A DNA stretch of 64,000 bases from a virus, in the IMG/VR virus record IMGVR_UViG_3300027811_000039, positions 21,149-85,148 of that record; one strand, 5' to 3'. Below, one piece after another: positions 2,659 to 12,979 of the stretch. A model generated the notes under the pieces. The model was given only the letters and a program-made list of their open reading frames with translations. It was not told the origin of the DNA and ran no database searches. Made by a program: the position numbers and the translations under genes. Each line of letters starts with the position of its first letter. The stretch's first letter is position 1.

Positions 2659-3027
2659 TTAGGACAATGCTCTGAGCCATCTATCTTTCATGTCTTGGGT
2701 ATCTTTACCTATATCAAAAGACATCGTAACTTCAACCATTCCTTGGTTTGTCTCGAAACGCTTAGGTGCAAATGCTAGGCTGCTTCCAGCCTCAATAACT
2801 CCAATTGCTTTCATGGCATCAAGATCCCTCTTGGCCCAATTTCCAGCTTTCATGAATTCATAAACTTTACCATCTTCCGTGCATCCATATATTATTTTAA
2901 ATCCCATACACTTGCCAGTTGCCTTGTTAGCATCCTGCACATTATTTAAAGGCATTTCATAAAACTTATGGGGCATGAATCCCTCTGTCGTTTTAACCAT
3001 CCCAATAAAATTTTCACATTTTTTCAT
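2659..3027 (-). CDS. Hypothetical protein
   Basis: ORF with GGTTGA leader motif upstream. Confidence 0.6.
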   Translation of the reverse strand: MKKCENFIGMVKTTEGFMPHKFYEMPLNNVQDANKATGKCMGFKIIYGCTEDGKVYEFMKAGNWAKRDLDAMKAIGVIEAGSSLAFAPKRFETNQGMVEVTMSFDIGKDTQDMKDRWLRALS

Positions 3028-4084: not shown

Positions 4085-4321
4085 CTCCCTTATGGCTTTA
4101 TTATATCGTAACAAGTAGACATTGTCCACTATATATATTTACCAATTATTAGGCTTTTATCAACTCAAATCTTTCAATAGTTTTACAGGTAAGCTGCCGA
4201 ACAGCCCGCTCTTCTTCAGTTTCCAGCTTCCCCTTATATTCCATGCTGCCCTCATATTTATATGTCAAGATAGATCCATTTTTAAAATATGCAATCGCTT
4301 TAATCATCTTCATTTCCTCCT

Positions 4322-8163: not shown

Positions 8164-8467
8164 TCTCCTTTTATATTTAATTTGCTCAACCTCTTATTTA
8201 CATAGTACCATTTGCAGACATTGTCTACAACGCCCAATTATTTCCATTTTATTATTCAATAACCTCATAAAATGAAATGAAGGACATTTTGCTAAGCGTC
8301 ATTTTCCTACCAGTTTCCTTATTTATCAAGGTATAGATCCATCCAGTTTCAGGTGTCCAACCTTCACGGTAAAAATATTCAACCATATTAGATTTATCAA
8401 TGCACGATTTTTCCATTTCTATTTCCTCCAATTTTACTTTTATATTCAGAATGGGGAAGGAGATTTT

Positions 8468-8773
8468 TTACATCTCCTGCAACCATCTCGCATTATCAAA
8501 ATCTAGCAGCCCACCAGCATCTAGTATTTCTTGGAGTGCCTTTTTCCCTCCCATTGGGGTATACGGTGCATCAATCATTGGTCTGCCCATTGCTCTTTTT
8601 AGGAAATTGATTGGGGCCAGATCTGCAGCGAAAGCGAAATATCCCAGCCCTTCCACATGGAAAGCATATCCTTTATTCATTTCAATATAACCTCTAGCTG
8701 TTCCGAATTTTTTACCCTCAATCTTTACTATTTTCAACTTGGCGTTAATTTCTAATGTTGTCATTTCAACCAC
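8468..8773 (-). CDS. Hypothetical protein
   Basis: ORF downstream of promoter-operator 8821. Confidence 0.55.
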   Translation of the reverse strand: MVEMTTLEINAKLKIVKIEGKKFGTARGYIEMNKGYAFHVEGLGYFAFAADLAPINFLKRAMGRPMIDAPYTPMGGKKALQEILDAGGLLDFDNARWLQEM

Positions 8774-8877
8774 TCCTTTTTTTATCTCTCAACCTTATGT
8801 GTTTATAGTACCATTTTTATGTAGACTTTGTCAACAATTAATTTATCAGGAAGGGGAGTTTCCTCCCCATGTTTTAT

Positions 8878-9072
8878 CTAATTTGCATACTTGTGAATCA
8901 CACTCAATAACTCACAATATTCCCCGCCATGAAGTTTATATAATCTGCTTTTATATACGGCCTCCCAGTTACCAGTATCCTTAGCATCCTGAATTCTTTT
9001 AACATCTGCTTGTGTCGTATAACTTTTATCATAAGATCTTCTTTTTTTAATCTCATCCAATATTATTTTCAT
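8878..9072 (-). CDS. Hypothetical protein
   Basis: ORF downstream of promoter-operator 9131. Confidence 0.55.
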   Translation of the reverse strand: MKIILDEIKKRRSYDKSYTTQADVKRIQDAKDTGNWEAVYKSRLYKLHGGEYCELLSVIHKYAN

Positions 9073-9284
9073 TTCATTTTCCTCATTTCATTTTTTAAAT
9101 TCTCCCGGCTCATTTATAATACCACACCATGTAGACATTGTCCACATTTTATTCAAACTCAATCCTTAAATTTGTATATCCAAGGTGCATATAAACTGAT
9201 CGCTTATGATTTACCTTGCTCCTAGTACAATACATACATTTTCCATCTTTTCCGTCCAAATCTGTAAAATATAAAATAAACATT

Positions 9285-9512
9285 TCAGTTCCCCTTCGCT
9301 CTTAATATAGGTGCCATAGATCCTTTGCCCATTGGGTAGATGCACTCCATGTTGTCCCAGTTAGTAATCCTACGACTCGATGTAGAATCCTGCCCAATTC
9401 TTTTTATCGTAATGGATTTATCAGTTCTCCTAACAACCTCATAAACCCAAATGCATTCATAATCGCAAACTGATCTGCATGAATATTCTTGCCCAACTTC
9501 AAATCTTTGCAT
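9285..9512 (-). CDS. Hypothetical protein
   Basis: ORF coupled to 9499-9747. Confidence 0.6.
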   Translation of the reverse strand: MQRFEVGQEYSCRSVCDYECIWVYEVVRRTDKSITIKRIGQDSTSSRRITNWDNMECIYPMGKGSMAPILRAKGN

Positions 9513-9747
9513 TTTTCATTACCTCCATATATTCTTGATAATCATTATTTTGTAAATCCTCAATGGTTTGATATTCCTCTTGCCCTTCTTTCAACATAAT
9601 GCTAATGGTATCAATATTATTCATCTTAACTATTCTCTCATACGCTGCCAACCAACTATATTCATTAGCTATCAATGTAAAATTATATCCTCTTTCTTCC
9701 AACCACGCTTTGTATTCTTGTTCTTCTTCATAATTCATCCTCAACAT
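9499..9747 (-). CDS. Hypothetical protein
   Basis: ORF downstream of promoter-operator 9793 with an AAGGAG RBS. Confidence 0.55.
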   Translation of the reverse strand: MLRMNYEEEQEYKAWLEERGYNFTLIANEYSWLAAYERIVKMNNIDTISIMLKEGQEEYQTIEDLQNNDYQEYMEVMKNAKI

Positions 9748-9816
9748 CTCCTTTTATTTTTCTCAACCCCTATGCTCTATTATAACGTATTTGCAGACAT
9801 TGTCCACATAAATATT

Positions 9817-9855
9817 AATAAATGGATCCCAGTTTTGGGCTGGGATCCATTTATT
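9817..9855. terminator. Bidirectional intrinsic terminator
   Basis: Perfect 16-bp inverted repeat AATAAATGGATCCCAG / CTGGGATCCATTTATT with a 7-nt loop. Confidence 0.8.
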
Positions 9856-9857
9856 TA

Positions 9858-10088
9858 TTACGCTTCTGCATTTCGCTTTTCAATCCAAGTATCAACTTGT
9901 TTCTCTGTCCATACTGGTCTATTCCCAATATAGGTCGCAGGGCTAGGGATGATGCCACGTTTCCAATAGGTATGGACTTTACGGCGATCCCATCCACCAA
10001 TTCTTTTCCCGAACTCAGTCACTCCAAGCAATTTCGGGATACCCGCTATTTCCTTTTTCATTATATCTTCAATAGTTAATACCTTCAT
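9858..10088 (-). CDS. Excisionase/AlpA-like winged-HTH DNA-binding protein
   Basis: LLGVTEF..RIG.WDRRKV..YWKRG..P.P...GNRPVW...V..W. Confidence 0.65.
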   Translation of the reverse strand: MKVLTIEDIMKKEIAGIPKLLGVTEFGKRIGGWDRRKVHTYWKRGIIPSPATYIGNRPVWTEKQVDTWIEKRNAEA

Positions 10089-10100
10089 TATTTTTCCCTC

Positions 10101-10406
10101 CTATTCATTAACGGCAATAAATCTAAATGTTTTTTTCTCAAAATAATGGTGTATACATTCATCAACAACCATTTCCACATTCCCTTTTATATCCCTAATG
10201 TCTCCAAATATTCTGTCATGTTCCGACTTATTAACTTCTGCAACATGTTCCAATGCCTTTAATATCTGAGTATTTTCCTTGACTTGGATTTCTAAACTAT
10301 CAAATCTAGATTCTAATCCATCAAACCTAGATTCTAAGCTATCAAAACGAGAATTCAATTTTTCAAATTGTACTAATACTAATTCCTGAAATTTTTCGTT
10401 ATCCAT
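10101..10406 (-). CDS. Coiled-coil protein (heptad RFD/LE repeats), paralog 1
   Basis: MDNEKFQELVL...RFDSLESRFDGLESRFDSLE. Confidence 0.65.
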   Translation of the reverse strand: MDNEKFQELVLVQFEKLNSRFDSLESRFDGLESRFDSLEIQVKENTQILKALEHVAEVNKSEHDRIFGDIRDIKGNVEMVVDECIHHYFEKKTFRFIAVNE

Positions 10407-10639: not shown

Positions 10640-10933
10640 CTATTCCCCTTTAACTATTTCCGTGAAGTCACTCCAATCCTCTACCTTAAATGCTCTTATA
10701 TCCCTAACTGACTTCTTGAACCAATCTATTTTTTGCAATTTATTTATCGCTTTATATACATTCGTTAAATTATTCTGGTCACTAGAAATATACAGACTCC
10801 CTTGTGTCCATGTAAATCCAATCGCCTCTAATTCTTGTCTCACTTCAAGATAGGCATTGCCATATGATTCACCATAATGTTTTTTTAATTCGTCTGTTTT
10901 CATATCAAATGCTATCGCATACAATAGCCTCAA
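10640..10933 (-). CDS. vapD: VapD-family (Cas2-like fold) ribonuclease
   Basis: YAIAFD...Y..AY.E+R..L...GF...QGSLY...[20 protein letters not shown]. Confidence 0.85.
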
Positions 10934-11011: not shown

Positions 11012-11401
11012 CTATTCAATATCTTCTGCCCAGCTATCTATCTTTTCAAATGCCAGAATTTTTTCGTCATCAAATCCAGCACCTTCCAATAATCTATATT
11101 CACCTATGATCTCTTGCCCGAACTGCCCCAATATTGCTTGTAAGCTGAATGTCCGTGCTATCCTGCCCCTACCATCCCCCACCTCGGATAACTTTACCCC
11201 TCGCTTTGTTACCTTCACATAAAACCGTTTCTTATCCTTAGAGAAGCCCACATTAATTCTGATCTCTTCCCTATCTGCTTCATCTAGATCCTTTATCAGC
11301 CTAAGCACGACATACCCCGGGAGGTAGCCGATCTTTTTCCTAAGCTTTACCACATCCAAATGCTTCGCCCATGTTATTAATTCTTTGGTGTATGGCTCCA
11401 T
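11012..11401 (-). CDS. Hypothetical protein
   Basis: 129-aa ORF. No family recognised. Confidence 0.55.
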   Translation of the reverse strand: MEPYTKELITWAKHLDVVKLRKKIGYLPGYVVLRLIKDLDEADREEIRINVGFSKDKKRFYVKVTKRGVKLSEVGDGRGRIARTFSLQAILGQFGQEIIGEYRLLEGAGFDDEKILAFEKIDSWAEDIE

Positions 11402-11405
11402 TTAT

Positions 11406-11819
11406 TCACCCCATCTTTGTAAATAAAATTTCAATTTCTGAAATTTTATAATACTCACCATTATAATAAGATTTAGCATTATTTCTTTTTAATAATCTCT
11501 TAACATCCCATGCACCCATGCTAAAATAATGCTTTATATTATTTGCATGAATATATGTTTTATTTGATGGCAGATATGATGAATTGAGGATCGGCGATAA
11601 TTCCACAATATAAAATGCTTCCCTTTCATCTAATTCATTAACATCAACTTCTATATATGAAAAGCTATCAAAATCCTTGTCCCTATGTCCATAAATTCTT
11701 GATACTCCAAACTTGCTTTGGCCTACATAGATTATCTTGTTATCCTTAATCAGAAAATAGATCATCGGTTTTTTATTAATATTTTGTTTTTTATCCAAAA
11801 TATAATTTACCAATTTCAT
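11406..11819 (-). CDS. GIY-YIG-like nuclease domain protein
   Basis: MIYFL....IIYVGQS....SRIYGH...E.E...I..L.P.LN. Start placed at ATG 11819. Confidence 0.6.
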   Translation of the reverse strand: MKLVNYILDKKQNINKKPMIYFLIKDNKIIYVGQSKFGVSRIYGHRDKDFDSFSYIEVDVNELDEREAFYIVELSPILNSSYLPSNKTYIHANNIKHYFSMGAWDVKRLLKRNNAKSYYNGEYYKISEIEILFTKMG

Positions 11820-11855
11820 CCACCTTACTTTTATTATTAATAAGATATATAAACT

Positions 11856-11954
11856 TTGTATAGGTGTATTTTGTATAGGTGTATTTTGTGGGTTCAAATT
11901 CTGCACCCCCCCAGTATAGAATCTGCACCCCCCCAGTGCAAAATCTGCACCCCC
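11856..11954. repeat. Putative replication origin: three iteron-like repeats at 22-bp period plus a 15-bp tandem repeat
   Basis: CTGCAC(5-7) units start at 11901, 11923 and 11945. TTGTATAGGTGTATT occurs at 11856 and 11871, next to an AT-rich tract. Confidence 0.7.
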
Positions 11955-11967
11955 TGTTGATAACTAT

Positions 11968-12357
11968 CTATTTCCTTTCATCCATCATTTCGTTAAATAA
12001 TTTATCTGGACTCAGCATACCTTCCGCAACCATTCTTTCCATTTCCTCTGTGTCATCGTTATATAAAAAATACATAACTTTTTCAAATCCCGGTTTTCCA
12101 GCCTTAACTTTCCATATATAACCATTCTCTTCTAACCACTTCATTCCCGATAAAACGCTATTCTTGCTTAATTTTGTTAGACTTATAAGCTGAGACATTG
12201 CCAACCAATCACCAATTTTTCCCCAACCCCATGTTTTTCTGACTAATATCAAATAACATTTAATAGCAGCAAGATTAGTCATTTTTGGGATATATATATC
12301 AAAAACAACATTTGGGACTTCGGTATAATTTTTCTGTGGTTTTGGTAATCTAAACAT
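11968..12357 (-). CDS. Phage replication-initiator-like winged-HTH protein (lambda O N-terminal type)
   Basis: NYTEVPNVVFD...L.LVRKTWGWGK..DW+AMSQL..LTKLSKNSV..G+.WLE..GYI. Confidence 0.7.
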   Translation of the reverse strand: MFRLPKPQKNYTEVPNVVFDIYIPKMTNLAAIKCYLILVRKTWGWGKIGDWLAMSQLISLTKLSKNSVLSGMKWLEENGYIWKVKAGKPGFEKVMYFLYNDDTEEMERMVAEGMLSPDKLFNEMMDERK

Positions 12358-12377
12358 CTTATTTTTCTCCTTTAATT

Positions 12378-12408
12378 AAAAAAGCCACCTTAGCACAAGC
12401 CAGATAGC
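12378..12408 (-). terminator. Terminator-like hairpin (putative attenuator) immediately before the rep RBS
   Basis: Minus-strand RNA GCUAUC-UGGC-UUGU-GCUA-A-GGUGGC-UUUUUU. RBS AAGGAG at 12372-12367. Confidence 0.55.
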
Positions 12409-12428
12409 AGAAGATCCATAAAATGTCA

Positions 12429-12458
12429 TTGATACCTTGTACTATTACATGGTACAAT
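12429..12458 (+). promoter_or_regulatory. Plus-strand sigmaA promoter antisense to the rep leader
   Basis: TTGATA-18 bp-TACAAT with TG extension, inside an imperfect palindrome. Confidence 0.55.
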
Positions 12459-12464
12459 GGGCAT

Positions 12465-12546
12465 AATGTTATAGGAATCTCTGCACTATTTTGGGTAGTG
12501 CTAAGACGAGAAAACCTTCAAGGACTGAGAATCCTTGGAGGTTTTT
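12465..12546 (+). ncRNA. Putative ~80-nt antisense (countertranscript) RNA
   Basis: Lies between the promoter at 12429-12458 and a 14-bp stem plus T-tract terminator at 12511-12546. Internal hairpin GCACTA-TTTTGGG-TAGTGC. Confidence 0.5.
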
Positions 12547-12564
12547 GCTTTATTCATTTTTGCC

Positions 12565-12573
12565 ATTATATCA
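12565..12573 (-). promoter_or_regulatory. Extended -10 promoter for the rep leader
   Basis: TGaTATAAT on the minus strand, about 200 nt upstream of the rep ATG. Confidence 0.5.
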
Positions 12574-12576
12574 CAA

Positions 12577-12762
12577 TCATGGGACGAGTTGAGTTTTATT
12601 TTTCTCCTTCAACGCTTTCTGGATATAAATCCAATATTCCTTTGATACCACGATAACATTCCCATAATTAGATTCCACTTCAAGTGGCTCATTGGATCTT
12701 ATAACCTCATTTATTTTTCCGAAAAAGTTATCTCTGAACTCAGCTACTGCAATTTTCTCCAT
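12577..12762 (-). CDS. Phd/YefM-family antitoxin-like protein
   Basis: I.VAEFRDNFFG.+NEVI....PL.V....GNV+VVS.EYW. Confidence 0.75.
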   Translation of the reverse strand: MEKIAVAEFRDNFFGKINEVIRSNEPLEVESNYGNVIVVSKEYWIYIQKALKEKNKTQLVP

Positions 12763-12784
12763 CTTCTTTTACTCCTTTACTCTT

Positions 12785-12979
12785 TTACCCCTTTATCTTA
12801 ACTGCTGCAAAAATCATCCTATTAACCCCAATAACCTTTCCTAAAACTTCATGATGTTCATCTTCAAAATGAGTAGGTTCTTTGTATCCCTGTTCCCTAG
12901 CAATTTTTGTATCTTCAAATACATCCTCAATTTTCACTGTCAGAAATCTTGGTGTTTTAATATAATCGCCTTTTTTCAT
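12785..12979 (-). CDS. Hypothetical protein
   Basis: ORF with GAGGGG RBS. Confidence 0.55.
   Translation of the reverse strand: MKKGDYIKTPRFLTVKIEDVFEDTKIAREQGYKEPTHFEDEHHEVLGKVIGVNRMIFAAVKIKG

Follow-up and report, generated by a model that had tools for sequence, protein, structure and literature searches.

A predicted countertranscript-controlled leader ahead of a lambda-O-like rep gene in an 87-kb soil phage with plasmid-type genes

The window, by which we mean the whole stretch of 64,000 nucleotides that was analysed, corresponds to bases 21149-85148 of an IMG/VR record of 86.7 kb rated as a 99% complete virus. The sequencing runs in which the sequence occurs are soil metagenomes, none of those listed being an RNA run, and contigs from three DNA runs are identical over the region, with zero variants. 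The minus strand of the window carries nearly every gene. By blastn, the region matched nothing among GenBank phages or PLSDB plasmids. The genes and origin elements surrounding the replication gene rep are the following:

14032-13661, minus strand: holin gene, upstream of the rep leader
13573-13000, minus strand: MazE/AbrB-type antitoxin and RelE/ParE-type toxin, between the holin and a 64-aa gene
minus strand, between the toxin-antitoxin pair and the 61-aa gene: 64-aa gene
12762-12577, minus strand: truncated Phd/YefM-like gene, 61 aa, adjoining the rep leader upstream
11968-12357, minus strand: rep, a 129-aa initiator with a lambda-O-like winged-helix domain only (PF04492, PHROG)
11855-11965, minus strand: putative origin, with a DnaA-box-like site, iterons and tandem repeats directly after the rep stop
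11963-11955, minus strand: DnaA-box-like site TTATCAACA of the putative origin
11900-11965, minus strand: three 22-bp iterons, 3-70 nt past the rep stop
11855-11884, minus strand: two 15-bp tandem repeats of the putative origin

The Rep protein matches Phage_rep_O (PF04492) with 31.5 bits, above the Pfam cut-off of 28.7, and PHROG 'replication initiation O-like' families at 6e-12. Its 36 homologues, of about 130 aa and 57-71% identity, are all metagenomic. Searching PLSDB and GenBank phages by tblastn returned remote O-like proteins only (31-44% identity), and a PDB sequence search with Rep gave no match. At the position equivalent to the DnaA-box-like site of the window, a perfect TTATCCACA is found in L002, L004 and L015, three of the related loci described below. 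The iterons suggest a second layer of control, by handcuffing; further iteron copies near promoters, a sign of Rep autoregulation, were looked for and not found.

Other features of the neighbourhood can be noted in their own right. The 61-aa Phd/YefM-like protein (12577-12762, minus strand) shares 37% identity (E 1e-12) with the bona fide YefM of L002, and its Pfam match reaches only 0.13. No toxin gene lies downstream of it and its stop falls 4 nt ahead of the promoter of rep, on which it may act as a Cop-like repressor; alternatively, it may be a remnant. Directly 3' of the iterons stands a small GIY-YIG-like gene (11406-11816, minus strand) with a weak PHROG endonuclease match only; it is missing from the equivalent site in L002, where the next gene is a homologue of 11012-11401. 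A solitary Cas2-like gene of 97 aa (10640-10933, minus strand; PF09827 with 24.9 bits for a cut-off of 23.8) is located about 1 kb downstream of the putative origin, and other cas genes were not seen nearby. Remote from the rep module, the plus strand carries at 59988-60008 two DnaA boxes, one perfect and one with a single mismatch, separated by 3 nt.

To these data were added 21 further distinct Rep-related loci, giving 22 leaders with that of the window. All the fetched loci have 400-600 nt of non-coding DNA ahead of rep, and the genes upstream of the leader differ among relatives. Several of the loci are on viral contigs of 24-88 kb. ParA adjoins the Rep module in L016, L026 and L027, ParM-like ALP genes adjoin it in L024 and L029, and in L019 and L021 the module is found on contigs of 7-8.5 kb together with a Mob_Pre relaxase. 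The small plasmid-like contig of L019 also carries a c-di-GMP-I riboswitch (4123-4208, 84.5 bits), close to response-regulator and histidine-kinase genes. In the Rep tree, L033 is the sister of the window, and both L033 and L002 share its leader type (alignment A4). L002, a relative of 88 kb, has an extra 91-aa HTH_36/DnaD_N-like gene (2726-3001) between the leader with its countertranscript and rep; the countertranscript there would control a two-gene operon.

Ahead of rep, the following elements were mapped on the two strands:

12573-12565, minus strand: extended -10 TGnTATAAT, here TGATATAAT, the rep leader promoter, directly after the stop of the 61-aa gene
12358-12558, minus strand: rep mRNA leader, ~200 nt, with a probable 5' end at 12558
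12510-12546, both strands: hairpin 1, whose plus-strand copy is the intrinsic terminator for the countertranscript and whose minus-strand copy is the first leader hairpin
12477-12507, minus strand: hairpin 2 of the leader, which cannot coexist with the long-range helices
12498-12509, minus strand: 5' strand of helix A, including the 8-mer 12498-12505
12385-12396, minus strand: 3' strand of helix A, made of the loop edge and the entire 3' arm of the terminator hairpin
12474-12484, minus strand: 5' strand of helix B, the other long-range helix
12407-12417, minus strand: 3' strand of helix B, holding CUUCU (12413-12409), an alternative partner of the Shine-Dalgarno sequence
12378-12408, minus strand: terminator-like attenuator hairpin (12408-12384) followed by U6 (12383-12378), from folding
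12367-12373, minus strand: rep Shine-Dalgarno sequence (SD), downstream of U6, with the ATG at 12357
12429-12458, plus strand: countertranscript promoter, TTGATA-18 nt-TACAAT, hexamers included, TG-extended, with its -10 at 12453-12458
12465-12552, plus strand: predicted countertranscript, ~88 nt, with a 14-nt 5' tail, a stem-loop and a terminator stem-loop

An earlier, sequence-only reading of this region had proposed a plasmid-style antisense-RNA attenuator. The minus-strand extended -10 that it reported at 12565-12573, and the hairpin with U6 that it reported at 12378-12408 ahead of the rep ribosome-binding site, were both located there. The same TG-extended -10 occurs in L033 and L002, 23-27 nt upstream of hairpin 1, and rep transcription would start near 12558.

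On the plus strand, the same reading had described a promoter (12429-12458) and a terminator delimiting an RNA of ~80 nt. Both were recovered, with a slightly longer predicted product, and the layout recurs in all 22 leaders. The predicted RNA folds at -30.7 kcal/mol (z -3.85) and is fully complementary to the first ~90 nt of the 200-nt rep leader, covering the part from which the alternative helices take their 5' strands. Taken singly, promoter-like sites are no more numerous than chance predicts for so AT-rich a stretch (11 observed against 11.8 in shuffles). A fixed rule was applied to the combination: a sigma-70-type promoter score of at least 10.5, a spacing of 45-115 nt and a hairpin of -12 kcal/mol or lower ending at four T. 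The antisense strand of the leader passes this rule in 22 of 22 loci, with RNAs of 70-104 nt. No sense strand (0 of 22) and no dinucleotide shuffle (0 of 880) satisfies it. The observation is above chance because the elements are combined and conserved in relatives, not because of any one of them. In L002 and L033, the hexamers of the countertranscript promoter, their spacing and the TG are kept and the spacer varies.

Hairpin 1 has 15 pairs and a T-rich tail on the plus strand. The antisense-side tail reads UUUU(G/C)C in relatives and the sense side of the hairpin is without a U-run in most of them, so that the terminator would serve the antisense RNA; in the window, the hairpin also precedes four U on the sense strand, and some sense transcripts may stop there. 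Among the relatives, terminator stems covary: when positions are numbered from the base of the stem, each of positions 3-10 is occupied by 3-5 different standard pair types across 19 distinct stems. An exact-pattern scan of viral contigs for hairpin 1 gave the L002 contig as its sole match. In most relatives, the antisense -35 is placed in the loop of the last leader hairpin; the antisense promoter of the window, L033 and L002 lies ~40 nt farther upstream. Searches of Rfam, with its curated ctRNA, CopA and RNAI models, at the gathering score, with the window and 18 relatives, gave zero family matches, and nothing relevant appeared up to E = 10 over 11800-12900. A family-wide MAFFT/RNAalifold analysis of 19 countertranscripts gave no consensus structure, because the stems are too divergent for sequence alignment. 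Taken together, the antisense RNA gene is most likely a classic plasmid-style copy-number brake.

Two sequence motifs in the loops of these leaders were also observed. A UUUGCC/UUUGGC-type motif recurs at the apex of hairpin 1 (L015, L016, L026, L027, L029, L031, L039), in the sense RNA of some lineages and in the antisense RNA of others, and might form a U-turn-like loop at which kissing begins. In relatives, the loop of the last leader hairpin contains a conserved GUCUAG...UUGCUAU, the opposite strand of which is the antisense promoter -35; this loop is complementary over 7-11 nt to the 5' end of the leader in L018, L029 and L016.

The leader itself folds better than its shuffles (z-score -4.9 for the whole leader), with two near-isoenergetic states. 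A terminator-like hairpin with a U-run directly 5' of the rep translation start is present in the window. It consists of 7 + 3 pairs with a 1-nt bulge and a UUGU loop, at about -12 kcal/mol, and on its own it is unremarkable (z -1.4 against shuffles; three G-U pairs). The 8-mer CUUAGCAC (12505-12498) was found, as had been claimed, to be exactly complementary to GUGCUAAG (12396-12389), and G-U pairs lengthen this helix to 12 bp (12509-12498 with 12396-12385), that is, to helix A. Helix A is the best helix joining the two halves of the leader, a value reached by 1% of mononucleotide shuffles; RNAduplex applied to the same halves gave over-long gapped duplexes.

For the leader 12558-12358, the minimum-energy fold (-57.7 kcal/mol) is not the terminator but a nested long-range structure composed of helix A, a 3-bp step and helix B (12484-12474 with 12417-12407). 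In the ensemble for the leader starting at 12558, helix A has a P of 0.88 and the terminator core a P of 0.01. When the countertranscript target is masked in silico, the terminator P becomes 0.95-0.98. Extending the 5' end by 2-3 nt, or including coding sequence, turns the minimum-energy fold into hairpin 2 plus the terminator. Since the two states are close in energy and depend on the ends chosen, we call the leader bistable and claim no single ground state: it is predicted to adopt either hairpin 2 with the terminator-like hairpin and U6, or the two long-range helices. The switch statistics for the window alone are modest, as 15% of dinucleotide-shuffled targets lower its hairpin probability equally. 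The competitor in the window takes the 3' arm and the 5' flank of the terminator and engages just 5 nt of the 5' arm. The earlier proposal that the antisense RNA masks an antiterminator is supported on computational evidence, since masking in silico raises the terminator P from 0.01 to as much as 0.98. One caveat is that the partner of the 8-mer is the 3' arm; another is that relatives retain the 8-mer only in part.

Comparison of the window, L033 and L002 brings evidence for both states. In the terminated state, 91% of cells are paired, with 30 of 30 cells paired in the terminator hairpin of the three leaders, where four one-sided compatible changes occur; hairpins 1 and 2 together contain five pairs in which both bases have changed, three of these pairs being in hairpin 2. 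In the alternative state, 90% of cells are paired (32/36 for helix A and 25/27 for helix B), with two both-side-changed pairs in each helix. Slid controls reach 32-49% of cells. This conservation of pairing involves three sequences, one of which defined the structure, and is suggestive only. Two of the 12 pairs of helix A are broken in each of the two close relatives, and the L002 terminator hairpin is predicted to form in either state. The stems of hairpins 1 and 2 are kept in the three leaders and their loops differ, a divergence that would be expected if the loops set antisense specificity.

Across the 22 leaders, masking the antisense target raises the P of the last hairpin from below 0.5 to above 0.7 in about half of them, and the reverse effect is never seen. 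In 15 of the 22, the real target outdoes 90% of its shuffled versions in disfavouring the last hairpin. The competing sequence varies: it pairs with the 5' arm in L031, as in pT181, and for L018 and L029 it is the very start of the leader, which pairs with the loop of the hairpin. The position of the SD varies as well. In most relatives it is within the 3' arm of the last hairpin, and a U-run follows in only about half; in the window, L033 and L002 it stands outside the hairpin, after a U5-U6 run, so that the hairpin cannot act simply by covering the SD. According to these folds, termination may be the better reading for leaders of the window type and SD occlusion for many relatives, both being possible.

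From these elements we infer that the RNA is expressed, that it pairs with the leader, that transcription terminates at the U-run and that copy number is affected. Countertranscript-driven attenuation of rep, setting the copy number of a phage-plasmid, has in our judgement a somewhat better than even chance of being the correct account. The plus strand would yield, from ~12465 to 12552, a constitutive countertranscript of ~88 nt. Without it, the nascent leader would tend toward helices A and B, which would occupy the 3' arm and the 5' flank of the terminator-like hairpin and let RNA polymerase enter rep. With it, pairing would begin at the loops of hairpins 1 and 2 and mask the 5' strands of the helices; the hairpin at 12408-12384 with its U6 would then form, and transcription would end just ahead of the ribosome-binding site. 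Transcripts that are not terminated could have their SD covered as well, by the released CUUCU. Because the RNA is made from the replicon itself, its level would follow copy number and exert a negative feedback on Rep, and this feedback would keep the phage genome, as a plasmid, at a fixed number of copies.

The most serious competitor, although we consider it the less probable account, accepts the countertranscript and makes its action mainly post-transcriptional, either by refolding that covers the ribosome-binding site, as in pSK41, or by creating a substrate for RNase III, the hairpin being an inefficient terminator. The window hairpin is indeed weak as a terminator, the CUUCU at 12413-12409 can pair with the SD once helix B is released, and pSK41 acts in this manner through an RNA that closely resembles this one in size and shape (PMC5703833). 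The location of the SD inside the 3' arm of the last hairpin in most relatives, half of them without a U-run, points to translational control in the wider family. Against this for the window and its two close relatives stands their terminator arrangement, with the SD beyond the U5-U6 run, and the anti-SD pairing of the window amounts to just 5 bp including one G-U and is absent in L002. Another account, which we regard as improbable, is that the module governs phage development, with Rep and the origin used for lytic or early replication that the antisense RNA would time or silence, without a stable plasmid state. Small antisense RNAs time or silence such functions in lambdoid phages, the record is classed as a 99% complete virus and Rep is lambda-O-like. 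However, phage-type replication has its own DnaD-type replisome organiser in this genome, together with RecT and YqaJ, and the genome also encodes ParA, toxin-antitoxin genes and a 182-aa Xer-like recombinase, a full-length integrase or serine recombinase not having been found in it; moreover, the same Rep and leader module is present on the 7-8.5-kb Mob_Pre contigs and beside ParA or ParM-like genes.

Two further accounts are less probable still. It is very improbable that 12510-12546 is simply a bidirectional terminator of the upstream toxin-antitoxin/lysis operon and the promoter a chance match, with no regulatory RNA. Promoter-like sites are as frequent in shuffles and the hairpin has a short U-tract on the minus strand too, but the promoter and terminator pair sits in the same place in all of the widely differing leaders and in none of the shuffles, the U-tail of the relatives is on the antisense side only, and their upstream genes differ. 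The least credible account is that the leader encodes a hydrophobic peptide of 32 aa (12457-12359, minus strand), with the antisense RNA as a type I antitoxin or the peptide coupling translation to rep. The frame is open, its product is hydrophobic, it ends 2 nt ahead of the rep ATG, and a similar frame is open in L033. Yet its TTG start is without a preceding SD, L033 has lost this start codon, L002 carries a frame-shifting indel of 1 nt and has a product that is not hydrophobic, and the countertranscript does not overlap the frame. As a leader peptide or type I toxin, the 32-aa frame was rejected on start, SD and conservation. Attenuation driven by the countertranscript stays our preferred reading.

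The wider genome bears on the state in which the phage would be maintained. Outside the window, it contains:

C1:18953-19714: ParA ATPase, in the same genome
C1:11601-12149: Xer-like tyrosine recombinase of 182 aa, without N-terminal domain
G000:C1:1072-2025, 8407-10286: DnaD-like replisome organiser (HTH_36 + DnaB_2), RecT and YqaJ exonuclease

A serine recombinase (PF07508) was not found in the genome. Holin and tail genes co-occur with Rep, iterons and ParA in a single genome, and the combination of two replication modules with partition and toxin-antitoxin genes is, to judge from gene content, the make-up of a phage-plasmid. The plasmid-like prophage state suggested by the sequence-only reading agrees with this context, both in the genome, with its ParA, toxin-antitoxin genes and Xer-like recombinase, and in the relatives, with their ParA, ParM-like and Mob_Pre neighbours. 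An extrachromosomal state of the 87-kb phage would be consistent with these genes.

Countertranscript control of rep is textbook knowledge for a few Gram-positive plasmid families, and the mechanism as such would not surprise a specialist. Our literature search found no description of countertranscript control of rep in phage-plasmids or for lambda-O-like initiators. We tentatively propose, at not quite even chances, an undescribed replicon family in which a lambda-O-like Rep of 130 aa is preceded by a leader switched by a countertranscript and followed by an origin that contains a DnaA box and iterons. This family would be distributed over small mobilisable plasmids and phage-plasmids of 25-90 kb in uncultured Bacillota and would combine iteron and antisense control; its leaders would have diverged into many non-cross-reacting variants, with differing loops on conserved stems, and would form a natural set of orthogonal attenuators and incompatibility groups. 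If confirmed, the 87-kb soil phage and its relatives would be plasmid-state prophages with RNA-based copy control. Metagenomic plasmids and phages could then also be annotated with a new replicon and incompatibility family, and some twenty natural attenuator/antisense pairs of diverse sequence would become available, a type of element that synthetic biology employs for orthogonal regulation.

Known systems offer close parallels for the RNA and more distant ones for the initiator. The layout of the window equals the design of pT181 RNAI, pIP501 RNAIII and pSK41 RNAI, reviewed in PMC5703833. Like pT181, it has a countertranscript (~87 nt in the plasmid) complementary to the untranslated rep leader with the start codon outside the overlap, a terminator-like stem-loop directly upstream of the rep start, and a competing upstream sequence within the antisense target (PMC5703833). 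Unlike the Rep_trans rolling-circle nickase of pT181, the initiator of the window is a lambda-O-like winged helix with iterons. The pT181 competitor pairs with the 5' arm, whereas the main competitor of the window pairs with the 3' arm and leaves the SD outside the hairpin; helix A on the 3' arm is, on this comparison, a kinetically weaker way to pre-empt the hairpin. Inc18 plasmids (pIP501/pAMbeta1/pSM19035) attenuate transcription through RNAIII on a leader of ~320 nt, against 200 nt here. Their Rep is of PriCT_1 type rather than PF04492, their origin architecture is also different, and a CopR-like XRE repressor gene was not found upstream of the window rep, where the neighbour is the truncated Phd/YefM-like gene. 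The RNA of pSK41 (~83 nt) likewise has two stem-loops and a single-stranded 5' tail, is complementary to the leader ~100 nt upstream of the translation start, works from a distance through refolding, and belongs to a replicon that also has Rep-binding repeats (PMC5703833). The induced stem-loop of pSK41 covers the ribosome-binding site, as it would in most relatives, whereas the SD of the window is only weakly coverable, and the Rep of pSK41 is of another family.

With lambda O, Rep shares an N-terminal winged helix (PF04492, TIGR01610-like) and the association with iterons. It differs by its length of only 129 aa, without the C-terminal domain that binds the helicase loader, and by iterons that follow the gene, next to a DnaA-box-like site, instead of lying inside it. 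Phage P1 keeps separate plasmid and lytic replicons in one genome, and the window genome similarly has a plasmid-type module (Rep, iterons, ParA, toxin-antitoxin) apart from its phage-type replication module. Handcuffing at iterons and autorepression, rather than a countertranscript, control P1 RepA; the window genome would add an antisense RNA to such a scheme. Because its Rep is different, a CopR-type gene and an Rfam match are missing and its competitor pairs with the 3' arm, the system of the window falls outside the pT181, pIP501 and pSK41 families. Our verdict, as far as sequence comparison allows, is countertranscript control of the pT181/pIP501/pSK41 kind, probably operating in an undescribed replicon family.
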